Positions 2,550 to 62,941 of a stretch of DNA of 64,000 bases are shown here, one piece after another. This DNA is from an uncultured bacterium (GTDB lineage Bacteria > Hydrothermota > Tepidihabitantia > SM23-42). Under the pieces are notes generated by a model. It worked only from the letters and a program-made list of their open reading frames with translations. It had not been told where the DNA came from and did not search any database. Location of the stretch: NCBI GenBank assembly GCA_965603515.1, contig CBFDDH010000001.1:80568-144567 (forward strand), read 5' to 3'. A program made the position numbers and the translations under genes. The stretch's first letter is position 1, and each line of letters opens with the position of its first letter.

Positions 2550-3359
2550 TCAGCGCGTATTAATTGTGTTCAGTTCCTCGGCAAGTTCCTCTGAAGTATA
2601 ATCTTGTTTTCTAACGCGCAGATCGAAATACAAAAGGACTGAACCGAGCACAGCTACAGGCATCCCCACTATCGTACTAATCGCTACGCCAAGAACCGGG
2701 ATTATGCCAGCGATCGAATTGATACCCGCTACGATTACTGCAAACATCAAATTGATGCCGAACACGCGCCACCAATTACCTTTAACAAGAGCATAGCTCT
2801 TAGAAAATGCCTCGATAATACCCGTTCCCCTAATCATCACACACGGCAAAGCAAAACACCAACATACACCAAGATAAATGGCAAAAGGTATGCCGATTAC
2901 GGTCAGGACAAGAGCACCGAGTGCCAAACCAACAAGTATGCTCGTGCCCAACGCAGTGCCCAGTCGGGACCAAGCATACCTATATGAATCACTAAAACCA
3001 ATGTCTTTATCATAATACTGCGCAGCAACGAAATAAATCAAAGCGCATTGAACCAAAACACTGACTATGATAAAACCAATGTAGCCAAGCACGCCACCGA
3101 TAATTATATATGGTAATACGCTCATCATCCTGTCGCTCTCGCTGAGCAAAGGAAATAGAAAAAAACCCCCATATATTGCTACGAAAAAAAACGCATTAAG
3201 AACACCGGTGATCGCAGCGATCGCCCAAAGTTTCGTGTAATTGCTTTTATAGATACGAAAAGCCTCGGAAAGAAGGTCTTCGAGTTTCCTCGGACCGAAG
3301 CTGATTTCTTGCGTTGTATTCAATTCTGTAGCCATTAGAAACGAAGGTCTTTTGCCCAT
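2550..3359 (-). CDS. polytopic membrane protein of unknown function
   Basis: 269 aa, multiple hydrophobic helices, no recognisable catalytic motif. Confidence 0.4.
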   Translation of the reverse strand: MGKRPSFLMATELNTTQEISFGPRKLEDLLSEAFRIYKSNYTKLWAIAAITGVLNAFFFVAIYGGFFLFPLLSESDRMMSVLPYIIIGGVLGYIGFIIVSVLVQCALIYFVAAQYYDKDIGFSDSYRYAWSRLGTALGTSILVGLALGALVLTVIGIPFAIYLGVCWCFALPCVMIRGTGIIEAFSKSYALVKGNWWRVFGINLMFAVIVAGINSIAGIIPVLGVAISTIVGMPVAVLGSVLLYFDLRVRKQDYTSEELAEELNTINTR

Positions 3360-4516
3360 AAGTGGGCGTATTTTATCCCGCTCGCGGTATTGAATAATAC
3401 CACAGTTTCACTCTCGCGAATCCAATCTTGCTGGCGTAGGTATTTGAAGGCAACGAGGGTTGCTCCTCCTTCAGGACAACAAAAAATACCCTCGGTGTTT
3501 CCGATCTGCATTATCGCTTCGATCATTGCATCATCCGGAACCGCGATCGCCGTACCCTTGCTTTCCTTTAGCGTACGCAGAATCAAAAAATCACCGATCG
3601 CCGCCGGTACGCGCAAACCATCGGCAATGGTCTCTGCGTCACGCCACGGGGTTGCCGTAGCTTCCCCTTGATTGAACGCAGTTACGATCGGTGCACACCC
3701 TTTAGCTTGAACTGATACCAAACGCGGCAACTTCGATTTTATCCAACCAAGATTCTTGAGTTCTTCAAATGCCTTCCACATGCCGATAAGACCAGTGCCG
3801 CCACCAGTTGGGTAAATGATAACATCGGGTAAGTTCCAGTTAAGTTGTTCCGCCAGCTCAAAACCCATGGTTTTCTTGCCCTCTATACGATATGGTTCTT
3901 TGAGCGTTGACATGTCAAACCTGCTATATTGAGCTACATCATGAGCTGCCTGCTGCCCGCAGTGAGTAATATACCCCTCCACGAGTTTTACCTGAGCTCC
4001 TCTTGCTATGCATTCAATAACAAAGGTCTTGGGCACGTCCTTAGGCATATAAACAAAGGATTTCAAGCCACCGAGTGCCGCATACGCACTCATAGATACC
4101 GCGGCGTTACCAGCTGATGGCACCGCCAGTTCTTGTATCCCGAATTCACGTGCCCGGGATACCGCAACCGACATGCCGCGGTCCTTAAAGGAGCCGGTCG
4201 GATTCTGGCTTTCGTCCTTGATATAGAGATTGCCAAAATCCAAAACTTCACCGAGGTTTCGGGCATGGATCAATGGCGTGAACCCTTCACCGAGTGAAAG
4301 GATGCTCTTGTTATTCTGCAAGGGAAGCAATTCTTTATAACGCCACAGGTTTGGTGCACGTTTTGCTATATCCTCGCGTTTGACTGCCTTGCGAACTTTT
4401 TTCAGGTCATAAAGAACGACCAGAGGTTTACCACAAAACGAACAAAGATTCCAGCGTCTATCCGCCTCCAGCTTATTGCCGCATTTTGAGCACTCTAAGT
4501 GACTGACGAAAGCCAT
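3335..4516 (-). CDS. thrC: threonine synthase with N-terminal zinc ribbon
   Basis: 393 aa; CxxC...CxxC N-terminus, PLP-lysine motif GSFKDRG, fold-type II PLP enzyme, length and motifs of ThrC. Confidence 0.8.
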   Translation of the reverse strand: MAFVSHLECSKCGNKLEADRRWNLCSFCGKPLVVLYDLKKVRKAVKREDIAKRAPNLWRYKELLPLQNNKSILSLGEGFTPLIHARNLGEVLDFGNLYIKDESQNPTGSFKDRGMSVAVSRAREFGIQELAVPSAGNAAVSMSAYAALGGLKSFVYMPKDVPKTFVIECIARGAQVKLVEGYITHCGQQAAHDVAQYSRFDMSTLKEPYRIEGKKTMGFELAEQLNWNLPDVIIYPTGGGTGLIGMWKAFEELKNLGWIKSKLPRLVSVQAKGCAPIVTAFNQGEATATPWRDAETIADGLRVPAAIGDFLILRTLKESKGTAIAVPDDAMIEAIMQIGNTEGIFCCPEGGATLVAFKYLRQQDWIRESETVVLFNTASGIKYAHLWAKDLRF

Positions 4517-4521
4517 GAATC

Positions 4522-4550
4522 ATTGTACACACAATGTGGTAAATTGTCAA
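4522..4550 (-). promoter_or_regulatory. sigma70-like promoter TTGACA-17-TACAAT placing TSS at the thrC start codon (leaderless)
   Basis: Minus-strand reading ttgacaatttaccacattgtgtgtacaatgattcATG; no SD between -10 and ATG. Confidence 0.45.
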
Positions 4551-4594
4551 TCATCCCGGCAAAATTATATAGCCATCATGTCACTGCGTCACTA

Positions 4595-4678
4595 TAGCGT
4601 TATGATCGTTTAGACCGTTTTGATCGTTAATATCGTTGTTTTTCGCCCTACGCTTTACTCACTACGCCTTACGCTTTT
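4595..4678. repeat. 84 bp direct repeat, copy 2, immediately upstream of thrC promoter
   Basis: Identical to 291-374 by eye across all 84 bp. Confidence 0.9.
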
Positions 4679-4725
4679 CCTGTTCCTCCCATACTCCGAT
4701 ACCCCATTACTCCGTTACTATCGTT

Positions 4726-5460: not shown

Positions 5461-5474
5461 ATAACCTCCTCAGC

Positions 5475-5535
5475 ACAATAGTTATTGGGCTTGGGTTATG
5501 AAGCTGGAATCCAGCATTCAGACCAAACCCATATT
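5475..5535. repeat. G-rich-TIR intercistronic element, family 1 copy A (short)
   Basis: gttattgggcttgggttatgaagctggaatccagcattcagaccaaacccatattctatctc; between TPR gene start and deacetylase stop. Confidence 0.6.
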
Positions 5536-18574: not shown

Positions 18575-18701
18575 TTTTCAAAAACCTCCTCTTATTTTGA
18601 TTACTTTCAAATTTGGATGAAATAGAAGCACACAGAAAATCCTTGTTCTTTCGATTGAATCCAGAAAAAATCCATCTATTATAGTCAATATGGTTCGCAT
18701 G

Positions 18702-21759: not shown

Positions 21760-22016
21760 AAGACTAAAATCATCAAATCACAAACGGCAAATAATCCCGA
21801 AAATCTACGATATGAAAATGAGACAAAATTTTCGAGGATGCTCGCTTCGCGCAACAAACAATCTCCAATGACCTAAACCACAAATAAGAAATAGAGAAGT
21901 TTTGATATTTAAATTTCAGCATTGTTTGGAATTTGGTGCTTGTGTTCTGCAATTTCCAGTACAGTATTCTTGATTTGCATGATGTGAATTCTCGAACTTT
22001 AGAACGATGCCTCCGT

Positions 22017-29519: not shown

Positions 29520-29537
29520 AGCAACTCCTTTTCAAAA

Positions 29538-29610
29538 TGGTCATTGGGTTAGGTTAGGAAGCTAGAAAAGAATCCAGCATCCACACCCAAACCCATTTTC
29601 CATATTCTAT
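29538..29610. repeat. family 1 element copy B
   Basis: tggtcattgggttaggttaggaagctag...atccagcatccacacccaaacccattttccatattctat; fills spacer between HADH stop and thiolase start. Confidence 0.7.
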
Positions 29611-30948: not shown

Positions 30949-31056
30949 CTAAAACCTCCTTTTTCCTTCGGAAAAATAGATGCAGACAGATTTGCCTACC
31001 GGCAAATTAAGATGCAAACGGATTAGATTTGATAAAAATTCCGTCTGCATCCTTAA

Positions 31057-31845: not shown

Positions 31846-32044
31846 CTTACCTCCTTCCAGATAAATACTAAATTCTGATCTCTTCAGCCTGAGGCTGATC
31901 CACCTCGGGTGGAAAATCGTACCTAAACAAATTCAAATGTTTTAAACGTTTCTTATTTTGTATTTCTGTCATTTGATATTGTTTAGGATTTAGTACTTAG
32001 ATATTGTCTACTCATTCATTCTGATCTCCTGAAAACACTCACCA
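31846..32044. repeat. AT-rich CCAAA/TTTAGG-armed intercistronic element, family 2, with twin-hairpin core (31885-31915)
   Basis: core cagcctgaggctgatccacctcgggtggaaaat; flanking ataaatactaaattctga ... gtttaggatttagtacttag inverted arms. Confidence 0.55.
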
Positions 32045-32512
32045 TCAGAACAGATCTGCAGCGATTGCACATATTTTCCCCAGCAACGCGTTGTCCTTAT
32101 CAGTAAAAGGGGAAAGAGTATATGAATCAATATCAAGCTCCCCGACAACCTGATCATTCTTCATTATAGGAAATACTATTTCGGACATCACCTTGACACT
32201 GCAGGACAAATAATTCGTTTCTTTTCTAATATCCTGAACCACAAATGGCTTTCTTATTACTGCAGCTTGTCCACAAATCCCTTCACCAAAAGCGATGCGG
32301 GTATGTTCAGTCGGTTCTCCGACAAAAGGTCCAAGAATGAGTTCCCTCTTTGATTGGTCAGCAATATAAAAGCCTACCCAATCATAATACGTTACATTAT
32401 CTTTAAGCAAATTACACGTTGCCGCTAGTTTTTCATCACGACTGAGCTTGCTATCGACAATTTCCTGGACGTTATTGATAATCTGCACAATCTCTTCAGA
32501 ATAGTCGGTCAT
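32045..32512 (-). CDS. GAF domain protein
   Basis: 155 aa; free-standing GAF fold pattern (small-ligand binding), no output domain. Confidence 0.55.
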   Translation of the reverse strand: MTDYSEEIVQIINNVQEIVDSKLSRDEKLAATCNLLKDNVTYYDWVGFYIADQSKRELILGPFVGEPTEHTRIAFGEGICGQAAVIRKPFVVQDIRKETNYLSCSVKVMSEIVFPIMKNDQVVGELDIDSYTLSPFTDKDNALLGKICAIAADLF

Positions 32513-33451: not shown

Positions 33452-33595
33452 AAACGATTAAATCTCAAAACCCAAGTATCAAAAACCAAACAATACCTAA
33501 ATTCCAATACCGAATTTTCTTTTTTATTTTTAAGTTTAGGATTTTGGTCATTATTAATTATTTGTAATTTGGGATTTGTAATTTGGAACTTGCCC
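33452..33595. repeat. family 2 AT-rich element
   Basis: aaacccaagtatcaaaaaccaaacaatacctaaattccaatacc ... aagtttaggattttgg ... tttgggatttgtaatttgg. Confidence 0.5.
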
Positions 33596-35104: not shown

Positions 35105-35217
35105 AAATCAAGTTCTTGAAACTTGTCCCGATTTATCATTGTTGATTATATAGTATAAGTAAATCGTGGATCCCGCATAGCGGGAGGATTTGGTTCTTGG
35201 GATTTGCGTTTTGGCAT
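35105..35217. repeat. family 2-related spacer (tttgg arm only)
   Basis: ggatttggttcttgggatttgcgttttggcatc. Confidence 0.3.
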
Positions 35218-36420: not shown

Positions 36421-36440
36421 TGCACCCCTTTTTGCAGTAA

Positions 36441-36540
36441 TGGTTATTGGGTTAGGGGTAAGATACTAGATTTCAAGCATCCATACCTATCTTCTATCTT
36501 TTTTTGTAGCATCCAAACCTAAACCCATCTTCTATATGTC
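36441..36540. repeat. family 1 element copy C
   Basis: tggttattgggttaggggtaagatactagatttcaagcatccata...catccaaacctaaacccatcttctatatg. Confidence 0.75.
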
Positions 36541-36542
36541 GA

Positions 36543-38150: not shown

Positions 38151-38253
38151 AATCTCCTTCTAAATCCTAAACACTATTATTTAAACTTGATTGTTGATTT
38201 ATGAGTTTGAATCTTTGGGATTTGTTTGTCATTTGGTATTTGTAATTTGGATC
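38151..38253. repeat. family 2-related spacer (tttgg arm)
   Basis: gaatctttgggatttgtttgtcatttggtatttgtaatttggatc. Confidence 0.4.
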
Positions 38254-38643
38254 TTATGCCAATACTGCCTTATAACCATAACAAATAATCCCGGTTTGTC
38301 CTTCTGTATACAACTTTCTAAAAACAAACTTCACTTTCTTACCGATTTCAAGGTCCTTTGGCTCACAATCAACGACCTGAGTTGTAAGCCGGACACCGTT
38401 GTCTGATTCAACGATAGCGATCGCATAGGGAACCTGCGTAGCAAAGTCTGCTGGTGCTACCCTGATCATTGTATAAGAAACAATTGTTCCAGTTTCTGAC
38501 AACTTTGTTTTATCAAATCCTTTGGACCCGCAAGCCGCGCATACCAGGCGGGGAGGAAAAAACAATTTACCACATTTCTTACACTTGGCAGCTTCGAGCC
38601 GGTATCTCTGAGGCATCTCTCTGTGATATCTCGGTGATGGCAT
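38254..38643 (-). CDS. DUF35 Zn-ribbon/OB-fold protein (thiolase/HMG-CoA synthase partner)
   Basis: Start at MPSPRYH with SD AGGAGG; CKKCG...CAACG zinc ribbon followed by OB fold. Confidence 0.7.
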   Translation of the reverse strand: MPSPRYHREMPQRYRLEAAKCKKCGKLFFPPRLVCAACGSKGFDKTKLSETGTIVSYTMIRVAPADFATQVPYAIAIVESDNGVRLTTQVVDCEPKDLEIGKKVKFVFRKLYTEGQTGIICYGYKAVLA

Positions 38644-38741
38644 GTAACCTCCTTTTAGAAACAAATACCTAAAAGTCCAAAAATCCAAAATACCTAAAGA
38701 AAAATACCAAACAAATCTTAGGCATTTAGGTGTTTAGTTAT
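38644..38741. repeat. family 2 AT-rich element
   Basis: aaatacctaaaagtccaaaaatccaaaatacctaaag ... cttaggcatttaggtgtttag (latter shared with 42360-42382). Confidence 0.5.
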
Positions 38742-39890
38742 TTATATTAGTTTGAATATATGTGTCACGGATGATGCTCCTGAACCACCCATATTCTGAG
38801 TCAATCCTATCTTTGCGTTCTTCACCTGACGCTTGCCAGCCTTGCCACGTAACTGTTCAACCACCTCAACAACTTGCGCAATACCAGTAGCACCAACCGG
38901 ATGCCCCTTTGATTTCAAGCCGCCCGATGGGTTGACTGGAATCTTACCTTCCAAAGCGGTATTCCCCTGCTCTGTAAAAGGACCACCTGTGCCTTTTTCA
39001 GTAAAACCCAATTCCTCAATAATGCAGATCTCGGCGATCGAGAAACAATCATGGACCTCAGCCACATCAATCTCTGATGGCTTAACACCAGCCATCTTAT
39101 AGGCAACCTCACCTGATACTTTAACCGCTTTCAAAGCAGTTATGTCTTCGCGACTGTGCAGGGCAAGTGTATCAGTGGCCGCACCTGAACCGAGTATCTT
39201 AACCAACGGTACTTTCAGCTGCTTGGCAAAATCAACTGATGTGAGAACAACGCATGCTGCGCCATCAGAAACCGGTGAACTGTCGAGCACCGTCAGCGGA
39301 TCAGCAACCAATGTCGCATTCATGACTTGTTCAAGCGTGACTTCTCTTTGGAATTGGGCATTGGGATTCATCGCACCGTTATGGTGATTTTTTACTGATA
39401 CTGCAGCCAACTGCTCCCTCGTTGTGCCGTAGCGATGCATATGGGCTCGAGCGATCAAAGCGTAAAGGCCAGGAAAAGTCACGCCTTGATACACCTCATA
39501 TTCCTGATCGGCTGCCGTAGCAAGCGCGTAAGTAGCATCAGCGCCGTCATTCATCTTTTCAACACCACCGACCAAAACTACATCACTATGACCTGAAGAA
39601 ATTTCAAAAAGACCGAGTCTCAACGCCATACCACTTGAACAACACGCTGATTCAACACGCATCGCTGGTATCGGAGCCACGCCCAGATAATCCGCCATCA
39701 AAGCACTGATGTGTTCCTGACCAACAAAAAGTCCTGGGGTCATTGCACCAACATACATCGAATCAATATGATCCACACCTGCATCATCGATCGCCTTTAG
39801 GGCAGCTTCAACGAAGATGTCCCTCAGAGACTTTTCCCAGAGCTCACCAAATTTGGTCATTCCACAACCAATTACTGCAACTTCTCTCAT
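38742..39890 (-). CDS. acetyl-CoA acetyltransferase, archaeal-type thiolase
   Basis: Start at [15 protein letters not shown] with SD; thiolase catalytic Cys region, GHPVGATG C-terminal motif; ORF track N-extension rejected. Confidence 0.75.
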
Positions 39891-39900
39891 ACCAGCCTCC

Positions 39901-40947
39901 TTATTCGGACATTCTGATCTTACCCCGATACTTGGCGTACTGTCCATAATCAAGGTAGATACGATTGTTCTCAAGCATCTCTTTGAGCTTCGCAGCTTTA
40001 TCGCGCACTTCATCAATTCGATCAGTCATCTTAAATATAAATGCATCGCTACCTGCACCTGAACCAAAAGAAACGAGCATTATCAACTCACCTGGTTTGG
40101 CAATATCGAGCGTCGCAGAAAACCCAGTGGGTGACGAGCCTGAATAGGTATTACCCATTAATGGAACTATCCAACCCGCGTCAATCTGTTCCTTGGTAAA
40201 TCCCAATCTCTTAGCCACGGCTAATGGAAATTTACCATTTGGCATGTGGAAAATCGCGTGGGCAAAATCGCTGGGTTTATAGCCGCTTTTATCAAGAATT
40301 GCCTTTGCCGCACCCAACTCATGTTTGAAATAAGCAGGCTCGCCAGTGAATCGCCCACCATGAAGCGGATAAAACGCACCTTCTCGGCGCCAGAAATCAG
40401 GTGTATCTGTTGTATAAGAAAACGTATCCAGGACCTCAGCAATAATGCCTTCTTTTCCGAAAATGAATGCCGAACCGCCGGCTGCGGCAGAAAATTCAAG
40501 GGCATCACCTGGTGCACCCTGCGAAGTGTCAGCACCAATGGCGAGTGCATACTTTACAAGATCAGCCTTTACCAAACCATGGGCAACAAACATTGCTTCG
40601 GTGCCTGCCTTGCAGGCAAATTCATAATCCGCTATATGGACATTCGGCACAACACCCAAAGCCTCAGCCACTACAGTACCAGATGGTTTCACGGCATAGG
40701 GATGTGATTCTGAACCGATGTACAATGCGCCGATCTCAACCGGGTCAATATTAGCTCTTTTTAGCGCATTACGTGCAGCTTCCACTGATATGGTTATCGT
40801 ATCCTCATCCATTCCAGGCACGGTCTTTTCCTTGAGCATCAGACCTCGTTTTACTGTCTCGGAATCTCTGCCCCACTGATGGGCAATTTTCTCAACCTTA
40901 ATCCGATATCTTGGTAAATAAGAACCATAGCCAACAACGCCAACCAT
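39901..40947 (-). CDS. hydroxymethylglutaryl-CoA synthase (archaeal/KAS-III-like type)
   Basis: 348 aa; [17 protein letters not shown]-terminus, catalytic Cys in EFACKAGT context, typical size of archaeal HMGCS; forms thiolase/HMGCS/DUF35 trio. Confidence 0.7.
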
Positions 40948-40964
40948 TAGACCTCCTCACCAAA

Positions 40965-41070
40965 TGGTTATTGGATTTGGGTTAGGATGCTGGATATAAT
41001 CAATAAATAAAATCTAGCTTCCAAACCCATCTTCCATCTTTTTTCTAGCATCCAAACCTAAACCCATCTT
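40965..41070. repeat. family 1 element copy D
   Basis: tggttattggatttgggttaggatgctggat...tctagcttccaaacccatcttccatctttttt ctagcatccaaacctaaacccatcttctata; internal tandem sub-units. Confidence 0.75.
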
Positions 41071-42240: not shown

Positions 42241-42389
42241 TCCTCCCTATTGCAAACACCTAAGAATCCAAAATTCCCAAATTCTTCACCCTGAGGCTGA
42301 TCCACCTCGGGCGGAAAATTAGTGCTCTGATACACTGATGTTCTGATAACATAATATTCTTCACTTTAGGCATTTAGGTGTTTAGGTAT
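42241..42389. repeat. family 2 element with twin-hairpin core (42288-42318)
   Basis: aaacacctaagaatccaaaattcccaaa ... ccctgaggctgatccacctcgggcggaaaat ... tttaggcatttaggtgtttaggtatctagg; inverted arms about 15 bp. Confidence 0.55.
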
Positions 42390-42800
42390 CTAGGCATTTT
42401 TGTCTTTTTCGGTTAATTCAATCAAAACACCACCCATATCCTTTGGATGGATAAATGCTATCTTGTTCCCCCCCGCGCCAATTCTCGGAACCTCATCGAT
42501 CAACCGGACATTGTGACTCTTCATCTCGGCTAGTACCTTCTCAATATCATCAACCCGAAAACACAGATGATGCAATCCTTCACCCCTTTTTTCTATGAAT
42601 TTAAAAACCTGGCTCTCTTCACTTGTCGGTTCTACTAATTCAATATGGGTTCCGCTGATATCCAACTTGGCTACTTTGACCTTTTGATCCTCAACCTCTT
42701 CGAGATTCGCCAAGCCCAAACCCAACGCATCTTTCCATACATACAATCGTTCTTCAATAGATTTAACTGCGATGCCTATATGATCTAGTTTCATATTCAT
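42390..42800 (-). CDS. methylmalonyl-CoA epimerase (VOC/glyoxalase family)
   Basis: 136 aa; paired beta-alpha-beta-beta-beta modules with His/Glu metal ligands (HIGIAV...HIELVEP...HLCF...ELTE). Confidence 0.7.
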   Translation of the reverse strand: MNMKLDHIGIAVKSIEERLYVWKDALGLGLANLEEVEDQKVKVAKLDISGTHIELVEPTSEESQVFKFIEKRGEGLHHLCFRVDDIEKVLAEMKSHNVRLIDEVPRIGAGGNKIAFIHPKDMGGVLIELTEKDKNA

Positions 42801-45298: not shown

Positions 45299-45317
45299 TC
45301 AAAACCTCCTTGCTAAA

Positions 45318-45425
45318 TGGTTATTGGGTTAAGGTTAGGACGCTGGATTTCAAACATCCATAGTCAAACCTGTCTTCTATCTTTCTCTAGTTTCCAAACC
45401 CATCTTCCATCTTTTTTTTAGGTAT
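45318..45425. repeat. family 1 element copy E
   Basis: tggttattgggttaaggttaggacgctggatttcaaacatccatagtcaaacctgtcttctatctttctctagtttccaaacccatcttccatctttttttta. Confidence 0.75.
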
Positions 45426-48989: not shown

Positions 48990-48998
48990 AGTTTAAAA

Positions 48999-49090
48999 GC
49001 AGTATCATTTCATTCGCAGTATCACGCCACCCTTTTTCAATGAGATGGGGTTCGCAGTATCGTTCATTCTGAACTTGCAGTATCACCTTC
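48999..49090. repeat. array of four gcagtatc(a/g)tttcattc motifs
   Basis: gcagtatcatttcattc gcagtatcacgcc ...gcagtatcgttcattc ...gcagtatcacc. Confidence 0.6.
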
Positions 49091-49111
49091 GGCTCGCCAT
49101 AAACTAAATAC

Positions 49112-49498
49112 TCATGAAGAATAACGCCTCCTATTTTTCGGCTTTTTAATAAGTGATTTATCAAAGGCAATTAGCTTGTAATACTCTTTTTCAATTAATG
49201 GCTCAGCAATTAAATAATCATCTTTGGTGGTATAATTTAGAGGAATCCCAATTTTCAAGACCCCGTCGACTTCTTGTAACGAAGTAATTGATCGGTTGAT
49301 GAAAACACTAAAATCTTTATCAGTATGACGACCACTACCTTCAGCAATGTTCAAAGCTATAGATACTACTGCTCTTTTACCTTGTGATGTTAGTCCATAT
49401 TTCTCATCTTTAGGGAACTCTTCGAGCAATTTATAAACAGCTTTAATTAATTCAATTGCTAACTGCCAGATTTCTGAATCTTCGTATTTAAATTTCAT
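49112..49498 (-). CDS. four-helix-bundle protein (23S rRNA intervening-sequence protein family)
   Basis: 128 aa; hallmark EKYGLTSQ.RRA.VSI..NIAEG.GR segment; inserted between biotin carboxylase and carboxyltransferase genes. Confidence 0.75.
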   Translation of the reverse strand: MKFKYEDSEIWQLAIELIKAVYKLLEEFPKDEKYGLTSQGKRAVVSIALNIAEGSGRHTDKDFSVFINRSITSLQEVDGVLKIGIPLNYTTKDDYLIAEPLIEKEYYKLIAFDKSLIKKPKNRRRYSS

Positions 49499-49530
49499 TG
49501 TTTAAGCGAATAAATGATCCTGCGCCTCCT

Positions 49531-49550
49531 GCGAATGAAATAATACTGCG
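49531..49550. repeat. inverted copy of gcagtat-tttcattcgc motif
   Basis: gcgaatgaaataatactgcg = reverse complement of cgcagtattatttcattcgc; right flank of four-helix-bundle gene. Confidence 0.55.
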
Positions 49551-49572
49551 AGCGTAGCGATCCTGCAATTAT

Positions 49573-51120: not shown

Positions 51121-51208
51121 ACGCTTACCCCCTGCATACCTTAAACGTTAAACCACAAATCCCAAGCACCAAATTACAAACAATACCTAAATTACGAACA
51201 TACTAAAC
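51121..51208. repeat. family 2 AT-rich element
   Basis: caaatcccaagcaccaaattacaaacaatacctaaattacg ... catttggaatttttg. Confidence 0.4.
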
Positions 51209-52072
51209 TCATTTGGAATTTTTGTTATGTACTGGTTTCAACACTTGATTCCCATTCTTTTCAACTATGTAGGCAAATGGAGTGTCAGGATCGTGTTCAA
51301 ATATCAATAACCAGTGTTCGTTTAGTGCCGTTTGCAAAATATCTTTTTTCTTCTTGATAATGTCGAGTGGGTACAGATCATAACCCATTACATAAGGAAT
51401 CTTAATGTGTGATGTTGTAGGTATAAGATCACCAAAATATATTGCCTTGCTGCCATCCGATTCAATCAAGACCGACTGATGCCCCTGCGTGTGACCATTG
51501 GTGACGATCACCTTGATTCCCTTACTTACTTCTTGTTCGCCATCAACCAATAAGAGCTGAGAATTTTCCTCTAAGGGAACAAAATTCTCTTTTAAGTAAC
51601 TTGCCTTGGTCCTTTCATTAACATGTGTTGCATCATACCATTCTTGTGTTTGAATGATGTACTGAGCATTAGGAAAAGTCGGTACTGACTTACCCTCCTT
51701 TTTTACAGTATTGCCACCACAATGATCGAAATGGAGGTGGGTGTTTATCACTTTATCGATATCCCCAGGTTCAATACCTCGTCTATGCAAGACTTCAATA
51801 AGATTGAAATCCCGCTCCACACGGTAGATATCTTTGAACCTCTCCTTGAGCTTCTCACCGATACCCGTATCGACGAGAATCTTGTTGTCAGGCGTTTGAA
51901 TCAATAAGCAATTCAAACCGAGTTCAATTCTATTCAGGTCGTCAGCCGGATTGAGTTTGTCCCACATAACCTTAGGAACAACACCAAACATCGCACCGCC
52001 ATCAAGCCAGAATTTACCATCTGATACGATCGACAGTTCAAATTGTCCCAGTTTTACTGATCTCGAATTCAT
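51209..52072 (-). CDS. MBL-fold metallo-hydrolase
   Basis: 287 aa; HLHFDHCGG metal-binding motif. Confidence 0.7.
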   Translation of the reverse strand: MNSRSVKLGQFELSIVSDGKFWLDGGAMFGVVPKVMWDKLNPADDLNRIELGLNCLLIQTPDNKILVDTGIGEKLKERFKDIYRVERDFNLIEVLHRRGIEPGDIDKVINTHLHFDHCGGNTVKKEGKSVPTFPNAQYIIQTQEWYDATHVNERTKASYLKENFVPLEENSQLLLVDGEQEVSKGIKVIVTNGHTQGHQSVLIESDGSKAIYFGDLIPTTSHIKIPYVMGYDLYPLDIIKKKKDILQTALNEHWLLIFEHDPDTPFAYIVEKNGNQVLKPVHNKNSK

Positions 52073-52575: not shown

Positions 52576-52597
52576 AAATCATCCTCCTTCATCAAAA

Positions 52598-52697
52598 TGG
52601 TCATTGGGTTAGGGTTTAGCCCGCCCCGCTTCGCGGCACGAGGTCGGGGAAACGAGAAAAAAATCCAGCATCCAAACCTAAACCAATCTTCCATCTA
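52598..52697. repeat. family 1 element copy F with GC-rich 36-bp internal insert
   Basis: tggtcattgggttagggtttag then cccgccccgcttcgcggcacgaggtcggggaaacg then aaaaaaatccagcatccaaacctaaaccaatcttccatcta. Confidence 0.7.
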
Positions 52698-62827: not shown

Positions 62828-62847
62828 AATAACCTCCTAACAATGCT

Positions 62848-62941
62848 GGTTATTGGGTTAGGGTTAGGACACTGGATTTCAAGCATCCATACTCAAGCCT
62901 GTCTTCTATCTTTCTCTAGCTTCCAAACCCAAACCCACCAT
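62848..62941. repeat. family 1 element copy G (most regular copy)
   Basis: tggttattgggttagggttaggacactggatttcaagcatccatactcaagcctgtcttctatctttctctagcttccaaacccaaacccaccatcta. Confidence 0.8.

Follow-up and report, generated by a model that had tools for sequence, protein, structure and literature searches.

What fills the AT-rich spacers between the genes of a long bacterial operon region, and where did it come from? The question is raised by a 64,000-nucleotide stretch of contig CBFDDH010000001.1 (the window) from an uncultured bacterium whose nearest genomes are metagenome-assembled genomes (MAGs) of Candidatus Stahlbacteria (WOR-3). The window has a GC content of ∼43% and carries nearly all of its genes on the minus strand. 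Between 28 and 55 kb the genes encode acyl-CoA catabolism (thiolases, 3-hydroxyacyl-CoA dehydrogenase, enoyl-CoA hydratases, methylmalonyl-CoA mutases, MeaB and others), together with two biotin carboxylase/BCCP/carboxyltransferase sets. Seven spacers of this region (31846-32044, 33452-33595, 35105-35217, 38151-38253, 38644-38741, 42241-42389 and 51121-51208), referred to here as family 2, had been described in an initial annotation as reiterated CCAAA/CCTAAA units faced by complementary TTTAGG/TTTGG units, and the sequences are indeed present there. These AT-rich spacers are a real repeat family, and the earlier reading of them is in part re-interpreted here. The explanation that we favor, with somewhat better than even confidence, is that they are part-decayed copies, lacking an open reading frame (ORF), of selfish palindromic cassettes that resemble ribosomal RNA (rRNA) intervening sequences (IVSs) and occupy operon spacers in the Stahlbacteria/WOR-3 lineage.

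Spacers are read throughout in the mRNA sense, that is, on the minus strand. The comparison covers five syntenic loci (L002-L006), whose proteins are 85-95% identical to those of the window and whose gene DNA is 76-96% identical, remoter relatives from a metagenome scan (L072, L074, L089, L094, L109 and L156; protein identity 50-86%), and 1.16 Mb of control DNA from unrelated loci of other phyla.

A discrete repeat family

The spacer 33452-33595 contains the focal element, whose parts are as follows.

33459..33588, minus strand: focal element of sub-family 2a/c, nearly full length (profile positions 2-124, E 3.5e-14)
33534-33586, minus strand: 5′ arm of CCAAATTACAAAT-type heptamers
33541-33555, minus strand: probable ORF-start relic AATAATGACCAAAAT, inside the 5′ arm
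33512-33533, minus strand: A-rich loop
33460-33511, minus strand: 3′ arm of TTTAGG/TTTGG units

Tandem Repeats Finder (TRF) and a repeat search both resolve this spacer into 7/14-nt tandem units, including three 14-nt unit pairs, and the periodicity of the element reaches z = 7.8 at lag 7. The element is colinear with seven other copies in the alignment, with AATAATGACCAAAAT standing where 2a/c copies show ATCAAATGACCGAAAT, and it scores 48 bits on the minus strand versus 24 bits on the plus strand with the 2a/c profile described below. Profile strand scores serve as the orientation marker; the order of C-type and G-type arms was dropped for this purpose because a palindrome reads alike on both strands.

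The motifs CCAAA, CCTAAA, TTTGG and TTTAGG occur 27 times in the seven spacers versus 6.4 +/- 2.2 times in dinucleotide shuffles (0 of 1000 reach 27), and the hexamers CCTAAA and TTTAGG 12 times versus 1.1, an excess over compositional expectation of ∼4-fold for the phased units and 11-fold for the hexamers. Each hexamer is found 6.7 times per kb in these spacers, 0.4-0.9 times elsewhere between the genes of the window and 0.12-0.15 times in coding DNA, so that hexamer density is 45-56 times that of coding DNA and 8-15 times that of the remaining intergenic DNA. Periodicity across the spacers reaches z = 8.0 at lag 7 and z = 5.8 at lags 8 and 14, likewise in the relatives' copies, and the 12-mer CCAAATTACAAA has four exact and two one-mismatch copies, all intergenic, versus 0.7 expected. 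Among the loci compared, phased arrays are nearly restricted to those of Stahlbacteria.

These motif tests carry a selection bias, since the spacers had been picked for these very motifs; nhmmer profiles were therefore built from the relatives' copies only and the window was then searched. The 2a/c profile matches best at the focal element, followed by 31850-32001 (E 5.3e-11), 21854-21957 (4.8e-10), 38160-38251 (2.2e-6) and 51149-51227 (1.8e-5); the 2b profile matches 38647-38744 (E 6.3e-20) and both arms of 42241-42389. The control DNA gives no significant profile match (best E 0.013). Because the k-mer frequencies differ from those of other intergenic DNA of the window, and because the profiles match window spacers and not controls, the family is discrete; the caveat that it might be a mere product of AT-rich composition, raised when the spacers were first described, does not apply. 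A blind self-comparison of 20-64 kb also links the listed spacers to one another (33523-33591 with 38187-38255; 33458-33503 with 51148-51193; 38718-38744 with 42366-42392), recovering in addition the repeat called family 1 and a 37-nt GC module.

Several details of the first description change. The set is not a single family and comprises two related sub-families, heptamer 2a/c (CCAAAT[TG]ACAAAT-type units; 33452, 38151, 51121, 31846 and half of 35105) and octamer 2b (RCCTAAAY ... TTTAGGTA/TTTTGGAY units; 38644 and 42241). C-type units are indeed followed by complementary G-type units, except that two of the seven spacers (35105-35217 and 51121-51208) are one-armed. The string reported verbatim in two spacers is common to both as the 20 nt TTAGGCATTTAGGTGTTTAG (38718-38737 and 42366-42385), without the leading 'c' once included and a few bases away from the positions first given. 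Finally, 'almost every' spacer between 28 and 63 kb was said to be filled, which is an overstatement; most do hold repeats, namely ∼16-17 of the 23 spacers of at least 50 nt.

ORF-bearing cassettes and the origin of the short forms

In some relatives, the same arms enclose genes. Arms of type 2b surround PF05635 ORFs at L003 1685-2059 and L074 10434-10808, and arms of type 2c surround one at L003 3206-3568; all three ORFs exceed the gathering score for PF05635 ('23S rRNA-intervening sequence protein'; TIGR02436 four-helix bundle). Comparison of the window spacer 31846-32044 with the L003 2c cassette (3140-3690) gives 89% identity over the left 81 nt and 92.5% over the right 93 nt; the 363-nt body of the ORF is not present in the window copy. 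The start of the ORF makes up the conserved 'loop' CAATATCAAATGACAGAAAT, and likewise the loop of all 2c copies, CAATATCAAATGAC(A/C)GAAAT (ATG ACA GAA ATA CAA AAT). The window copy is laid out as follows.

31850..32001, minus strand: 2c copy, aligning with both ends of L003 3140-3690
31975-32004, minus strand: 5′ arm
31952-31974, minus strand: relic of codons 1-7 of the four-helix-bundle ORF, AAATGACAGAAATACAAAATAAG
31922-31939 and 31857-31874, minus strand: 3′ arm in two pieces, split by a GC twin-hairpin module (31875-31921)

The octamer form repeats this pattern. The short 2b copy L003 4831-4936 matches the L003 2b cassette at 91-94% over both ends, and the final 5′ unit of that cassette, ATGCCTAAA, also supplies the start codon. 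Presence and absence of the ORF are reciprocal: at junction 38742|38643 it is present in L074 and the element is short in the window, L003 and L006, and at junction 41071|40947 it is present in L003 and the element is short in L074. A decayed 3′ end of the ORF is retained at L003 10078-10292. Sequence comparison thus identifies the short family-2 elements as internal-deletion derivatives of ORF-bearing cassettes, because both arms and the first ORF codons are retained and presence and absence are reciprocal across genomes.

The cassette at L003 3140-3690 can be compared with an empty site (window 39888-39915; L006 5005-5008), of which 19 nt are replaced. In L003, two genes otherwise 10 nt apart are separated, the upstream gene acquires another stop codon, so that the C-terminus of its product changes from ..RMSE* to ..RMNG*, and the downstream gene receives a new Shine-Dalgarno site, GGAAGGAGGTAAG, from the cassette. 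The window 2c copy has left (AGATCAGAATGAATGRGTAG) and right flanks as in this filled site, at a different junction. A target-site duplication was considered, as AGATCAGAAT borders 2c copies on both sides, yet the empty site does not fit it.

The window itself also contains a cassette that is intact; it belongs to a sister family, family 3.

48990..49572, minus strand: intact family 3 cassette (Pfam PF05635 E 9.6e-28, and TIGR02436)
49516-49566, minus strand: 5′ arm of GCAGGATC/GCAGTATC units
49112-49498, minus strand: PF05635 four-helix-bundle ORF
48999-49084, minus strand: 3′ arm of GATACTGC units

This cassette shows the former state of the family-2 spacers, before loss of the ORF.

Arm pairing

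The window copies had been credited with imperfect inverted arms of 12-20 bp. They are no more complementary than composition-matched shuffles: the focal arms give 17 nt at 71% complementarity by repeat search, and 38160..38251 has zero pairing signal (z = 0). Since the window family-2 copies fold and pair no better than shuffles, an RNA-level role cannot be argued from them. Whole-spacer minimum free energy (MFE) was abandoned as proof of a hairpin, its z being -2.0 to -2.4 for 31846, 38644 and 42241 and positive for 38151 and 51121, and was replaced by arm-arm duplex tests.

Pairing is found in better-preserved copies. The duplex z of the relatives' short copies is -1.4 to -4.4, mostly -2 to -4.4, and for the better-preserved ones (z -2 to -4.4) only 0-7 of 500 shuffles are equally good. 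Flank-flank duplexes of ORF-bearing cassettes reach z = -2.0 to -6.3; that of 48990-49572 amounts to -59 kcal/mol (z = -6.1), with 21-nt arms that are 95% complementary. In L074, CCTAAAT/ATTTAGG is swapped for CCGAAAT/ATTTCGG on both arms. The consensus fold of six 2c copies is a weak 14-pair stem (-3.5 kcal/mol), and compensatory pairs make up 3 of the 14 consensus pairs.

Turnover at operon junctions

The focal junction holds four different arm families when the window is set beside its five relatives, in which the flanking genes are 80-96% identical. It is occupied by 2a in the window, by 2b in L004, by a 2b arm with a decayed ORF tail in L003, by a GATCAGA/TCTGAT-unit hairpin in L002, and by GCAGGATC/GATACTGC-unit elements in L005 and L006. 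At junction 38742|38643, the 5′-arm octamers number one in L006, three in the window and four in L003; such differences in unit number between close relatives suggest slippage. The window contains two copies of the GC twin-hairpin module (CCCGAGGYGGATCAGCCTCAGG) and L003 three, whereas 209 other loci lack it. Copies of it (TTTTCCRCCCGAGGYGGATCAGCCTCAGGSTGAAGA; window 31875-31921 and 42283-42321, L003 422-443, 3617-3638 and 5443-5464) are nested in family-2 3′ arms in constant orientation, and a 55-nt segment bearing it in L003 (5427-5482) is missing from L006 at that place. The module behaves like a tiny mobile insert. In two further WOR-3 lineages, a family-3 four-helix-bundle cassette lies between an AMP-binding gene and ThiC, co-oriented in L199 (2405-3108) and inverted in L205 (2402-2977), with the orientation of an adjacent 84-aa ORF unchanged; this is consistent with inversion between the inverted arms of the cassette. 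Operon junctions are general insertion hot spots.

Other small genes also occupy junctions of the relatives (L004 9145-10000 and 3745-4310), including an ORF that looks Cys-rich and Fe-S-like by eye (L002 6151-6801) and another four-helix-bundle gene (L005 2834-3517). Beside the family-2 copy at 31846-32044, a GAF-domain gene (32045-32512) separates NifU from enoyl-CoA hydratase. It is present in L002 and missing from L004 and L006, where the two neighbors are 16-33 nt apart.

The PF05635 gene and its wider occurrence

The PF05635 cassette gene is functional and its protein is under purifying selection, dN/dS of the family-3 protein being 0.15 (window versus L005); in other pairs dS is saturated and dN is 0.08-0.18. 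In contrast to host genes, none of eight four-helix-bundle ORFs has a Shine-Dalgarno motif within 25 nt upstream. Each clade of the protein goes with its own units: 2b with L003 1685-2059 and L074 10434-10808, 2c with L003 3206-3568, and family 3 with the window, L005 and L199. Exact look-up of the window protein gave no extra copies, all five contigs being the same locus in other samples.

Beyond WOR-3, the sole PF05635 gene among 65 control loci (L021, Bacteroidota) lies directly upstream of a biotin carboxylase gene and follows, on the same strand, a reading frame that ends just before it; it is accompanied by complementary heptamer arrays (z = -3.4). Four more homologs from Bacteroidota/Balneolales, selected by the length of the surrounding sequence alone, all lie between co-directional genes (MTHFR|LepA, FtsX|ABC ATPase, NuoF-like|GltD-like) and are embedded in arrays whose units measure 7-8 nt and which have complementary parts (z = -2.3 to -6.3). 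The arrays at four-helix-bundle genes are direct, not inverted, in L127, L130 and L213. PF05635/S23p proteins are numerous; for a single Bacteroidota member, >1,500 relatives were found.

Avd relatives of PF05635 bind nucleic acid in diversity-generating retroelements (DGRs). PF05635/S23p proteins are not known to have a role beyond that of Avd subunit of DGRs. Literature searches found PF05635 discussed only in IVS and DGR contexts and no description of operon-spacer cassettes. Avd, an accessory protein of DGRs, belongs to PF05635 (PMC10053308).

A model of the cassette and its alternatives

As reconstructed from these copies, a full cassette comprises a 5′ arm, in which 3-6 units of 7-8 nt follow one another in phase, a PF05635 gene of ∼120 codons without a Shine-Dalgarno site within 25 nt upstream, and a 3′ arm of complementary units that ends just short of the next host gene's ribosome-binding site. 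Comparison of the copies shows that the ORF is lost by internal deletion, leaving short forms of 100-150 nt, that close relatives differ by exchange or replacement of whole cassettes at a junction, and that tiny GC-hairpin modules nest within them. The cassettes are presumably co-transcribed with the operon. Across the region, sigma-70-like promoters and intrinsic terminators do not exceed shuffles overall, and no family-2 spacer contains a promoter or terminator site on the mRNA (minus) strand; one terminator-like site lies on the plus strand at 35171-35185, and strong Shine-Dalgarno sites follow the elements. A Bacteroidetes-type -7 motif, TAnnTTTG, was dropped, as by eye it matches the antisense strand only. 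In intact copies, pairing between the arms would exclude the insert from the mRNA as a loop. By analogy with rRNA IVSs, the stem may be an RNase III substrate that the enzyme cuts, and the operon could then tolerate the insertion. The window family-2 copies, which no longer pair significantly, are probably near-neutral relics.

Some observations weigh against descent from such selfish cassettes. The focal spacer has an MFE z of only -0.26 and an arm-arm duplex z of -1.3 versus shuffles, and in the five two-armed listed spacers of the window duplex z is 0 to -1.8, no better than shuffles. An ORF-bearing master of the heptamer 2a form was not found, so that its link runs through the 2c copies and family membership. 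The filled site L003 3140-3690 shows no target-site duplication relative to the empty site, no transposase domain occurs among the 48 window proteins scanned, and the lineage sample behind the copy counts is ∼0.2 Mb only.

Intercistronic stem-loops of REP/BIME or ERIC type have been proposed to serve their host, with the hairpin stabilizing upstream mRNA, setting processing sites or coupling stop and start for translation. The present elements would suit such a role in fitting exactly from stop codon to Shine-Dalgarno site, in pairing significantly where well preserved, in the concerted change of the L074 arms, and in that, of the six copies to which the 2a/c profile gives a score on each strand, five lie in the mRNA sense. 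However, orthologous junctions of close relatives hold unrelated cassettes or none (the 10-nt window spacer 39891-39900 corresponds to 520 nt in L003), pairing is lost in the window copies, L006 at 38742|38643 retains one 5′ unit versus five 3′ units, and Rfam gives no match even at E <= 1, so this explanation appears unlikely. The strict phasing of the units, and the pairing of every four-helix-bundle clade with its own unit sequence, would also be expected if the units were iterated DNA or RNA sites bound either by the four-helix-bundle protein that the cassette encodes or by a protein of the host, the inverted layout then being due to the geometry of binding rather than to a hairpin. Purifying selection on the proteins, the unit arrays around Bacteroidota genes, some of them direct (L127, L130, L213), and the Avd relatives that accompany reverse transcriptase in DGRs (PMC10053308) point the same way. 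Co-inheritance of ORF and arms nevertheless accounts for the clade-unit match without any binding, and the ORF-less copies of the window persist with no cognate family-2 ORF in the 64 kb, which leaves protein-binding arrays rather unlikely as the explanation.

That the spacers are plain simple-sequence DNA, with slippage-expanded units in an AT-rich background and a family that is mere convergence, is highly improbable and already largely refuted. Orthologous copies do differ in unit number, many unrelated metagenome contigs (GC 0.28-0.65) carry one-sided (CCTAAAYR)n arrays, and only ∼8 of 122 such arrays have a complementary array nearby. Yet colinear homology extends over 100-130 nt at non-orthologous junctions, includes the non-repetitive loop and the ORF-start relic, and spans genomes with 60-95% protein identity; the motifs also outnumber those of dinucleotide shuffles, and the control DNA yields no significant hits.

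Relation to known systems

For 30 years, rRNA IVSs have been described as selfish elements that serve no known purpose. The cassettes described here work most like them, although they fail the defining test of location. IVSs have complementary borders and are excised by RNase III, some carry a PF05635-family ORF with a poor Shine-Dalgarno site, and they are regarded as selfish or parasitic elements transcribed within host RNA (PMC4990558). The cassettes share with the IVSs of Leptospira, Coxiella and Brucella the ORF family (S23p; PF05635/TIGR02436), complementary borders that, in ORF-bearing copies, enclose the ORF as a stem, an ORF without a good Shine-Dalgarno site (PMC4990558), ORF decay and patchy presence among close relatives. 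The stem is evident in the ORF-bearing cassettes (duplex z -2 to -6.3) and in many of the relatives' short copies, and not in the window family-2 copies (0 to -1.8). Likewise, PF05635 ORFs lie within family-2 arms at two places in L003 and at one in L074, whereas in the window the family-2 copies keep a start relic only and the family-3 cassette an intact ORF. The cassettes differ in having arms of phased 7-8 nt units, in the abundance of ORF-less short derivatives, and in lying between protein-coding genes of operons instead of in 23S rRNA helices 9/25/45: all element copies lie between protein-coding genes, and Rfam finds no rRNA in the window (0 matches).

REP/REPIN, ERIC, Correia and BOX elements and miniature inverted-repeat transposable elements (MITEs) are similarly short, dispersed, imperfectly palindromic and extragenic, often between co-transcribed genes; the MITE likeness extends to short forms derived by internal deletion from longer coding elements and to nested insertions. 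REP/REPIN elements (PMC3116915, PMC3733652) are built on palindromes of 20-40 nt whose conserved head reads GTAG or CGTC (PMC3733652). No GTAG/CGTC-tagged palindrome occurs in the present elements, whose arms begin with CCAAAT or RCCTAAAY units, and no transposase or REP-associated tyrosine transposase (RAYT) is found among the 48 scanned window proteins, thirteen genes being outside the scan. Unlike MITEs, the elements have inverted arms without target duplication, 19 nt of the empty site being replaced, and their parent encodes only the PF05635 four-helix-bundle protein and not a transposase. Rfam covariance models match nothing in the window at gathering thresholds, and nothing between 28 and 53 kb even at E <= 1.

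In 2008, Elhai et al. reportedly described heptamer repeats of cyanobacteria (STRR) in which very small mobile repeats are nested. Intergenic tandem heptamers with tiny nested hairpin modules and variable presence between relatives are found here as well, yet the phylum and the units are different and complementary array pairs surround a PF05635 ORF or relic; the likeness is therefore one of analogy and not of membership. A cyanobacterial origin, suggested by the STRR-like heptamers, was rejected, since the HIP1 sequence occurs only four times in the window and the nearest genomes are those of Candidatus Stahlbacteria. The four copies of this octamer (GCGATCGC; 3217, 3543, 13727 and 38417), versus 0.66 expected, are a mild excess for a non-cyanobacterial genome. 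Mycobacterial interspersed repetitive units (MIRUs) are confined to intercistronic spacers of operons; they are direct repeats, each unit being 46-100 bp long, and have small ORFs coupled to them. They resemble family 2 in this confinement and in strain-variable unit number, but the units here are of 7-8 nt, in inverted arrays and without the MIRU-type ORF design.

Further copies and other repeats of the window

The remaining family-2 copies of the window are the following.

38160..38251, minus strand: decayed 2a/c copy, 5′ arm 38213-38250 and short 3′ arm 38160-38174
38647..38744, minus strand: 2b copy of octamers, followed by the Shine-Dalgarno site of the next gene
38717-38738 and 38662-38698, minus strand: arms of the 38647 copy, 5′ ACTAAACACCTAAATGCCTAAG and 3′ TTTAGGTATTTTGGATTTTTGGACTTTTAGGTATTTG
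42251..42399, minus strand: 2b copy with nested inserts (2b profile 42361-42399, E 2.3e-9; 42251-42284, E 5.8e-3)
42364-42389, 42253-42282 and 42283-42321, minus strand: 5′ arm, 3′ arm and GC twin-hairpin module of the 42251 copy
51139..51208, minus strand: half element of 3′-arm type only, TTTAGG/TTTGG units (2a/c profile positions 46-124)
35186..35217, minus strand: half element, 5′ arm only (ATGCCAAAACGCAAATCCCAAGAACCAAATCC)
21854..21957, plus strand: extra 2a/c copy (plus-strand match versus E 5e-4 on the minus strand)

The spacer 38151-38253 is a diverged ortholog of a better-preserved 2c copy, L006 6641-6779. The half element 51139..51208 is a direct repeat of 33458-33503 (46 nt, 83%). 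That at 35186..35217 is missed by both profiles; its ortholog L002 2468-2577 opens with the identical 32 nt and runs on as a full hairpin (duplex z = -3.5), and the remainder of the window spacer (35122-35185) is an unrelated module, which is all that the L003 counterpart holds. The 21854..21957 copy, absent from the earlier list, lies outside the acyl-CoA cluster, is inverted relative to the flanking minus-strand genes and has a 38-nt, 82% complementary match to 51156-51193.

Mechanical calling sets some ORF starts beside these copies too far upstream (38644-38688 and 39891-40016). The 38254 gene most likely begins at ATG 38643, behind AAAAGGAGGTTAC, and the 38742 gene at ATG 39890, behind GGAGGCTGGT; the overlap of the latter with 39901-40947 is an artifact of its overlong call.

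Family 1 is an element of 75-127 nt (5461-5535, 29520-29610, 36421-36542, 40948-41070, 45299-45425, 52576-52697 and 62828-62941) that reads GAAGATGGGTTTAGGTTTGGATGCTRG ... CCAGCATCCTAACCCNAACCCAATRACCATTT in the mRNA sense, with a Shine-Dalgarno site 4-8 nt further on. Its G-type arm comes first, the reverse of the family 2 order, TTTAGG/TTTGG cores are common to both families, and its MFE z is -0.5 to -4.3. The region 18575-18701, noted earlier as a family-1 relic, contains TTGACTATAAT-like promoter boxes and AGATGGATTTTTTCTGGATT and gives no family-2 profile match. A separate hairpin family (GGATGCAGACGGAATTTTT...ATCCGTTTGCATC plus TTTGCCGGTAGGCAAA) at 30949-31056 has the strongest fold of any spacer (z = -4.6); it is kept at the matching junction L004 13287-13394, and a related copy occupies a different junction (L004 1225-1355). 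The spacers 1-364 and 4517-4725 share a ∼75-nt stretch, GGCGTAGTGAGTAAAGCGTAGGGCGAAAAACAACGATATTAACGATCAAAACGGTCTAAACGATCATAACGCTAT, with 9/18-nt periodic AACGATnnn units, in both cases upstream of sigma-70-like TTGACA...TATAAT-type boxes.

A metagenome scan for octamer arrays returned mostly one-sided tandem arrays from unrelated organisms and is of limited value for the element itself. Long arrays of this kind, (CCTAAACA)n, occur in L076, L083, L098, L172, L182, L183, L188 and others, often adjoining other arrays of 7-8 nt units and just upstream of start codons; L090 and L166 resemble plant-type telomeric CCCTAAA arrays.

Significance

For this uncultured phylum, structural turnover between genomes whose genes are 80-96% identical is concentrated in these spacers. 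MAG assembly is affected, contigs breaking within the spacers (L001, for example, ends at 33514), as are operon annotation and strain typing. The same ORF family and complementary arms, found between operon genes together with short derivatives, suggest that the IVS is one habitat of a broader type of element. It is possible, though less likely than not, that PF05635 genes with self-complementary arrays of 7-8 nt form a widespread, undescribed class of cassettes in operon spacers of the FCB group (WOR-3/Stahlbacteria, Bacteroidota, Balneolales), that the protein of each clade recognizes its own array and thereby aids maintenance, processing or spread, and that the family-2 spacers are footprints of such cassettes. 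The matched protein-repeat pairs are offered for tests of binding and of RNase III processing. If the possibility proved true, rRNA IVSs would represent one particular case of a general element that dwells in operons, and the orphan S23p/Avd-like family would gain a testable nucleic-acid target.

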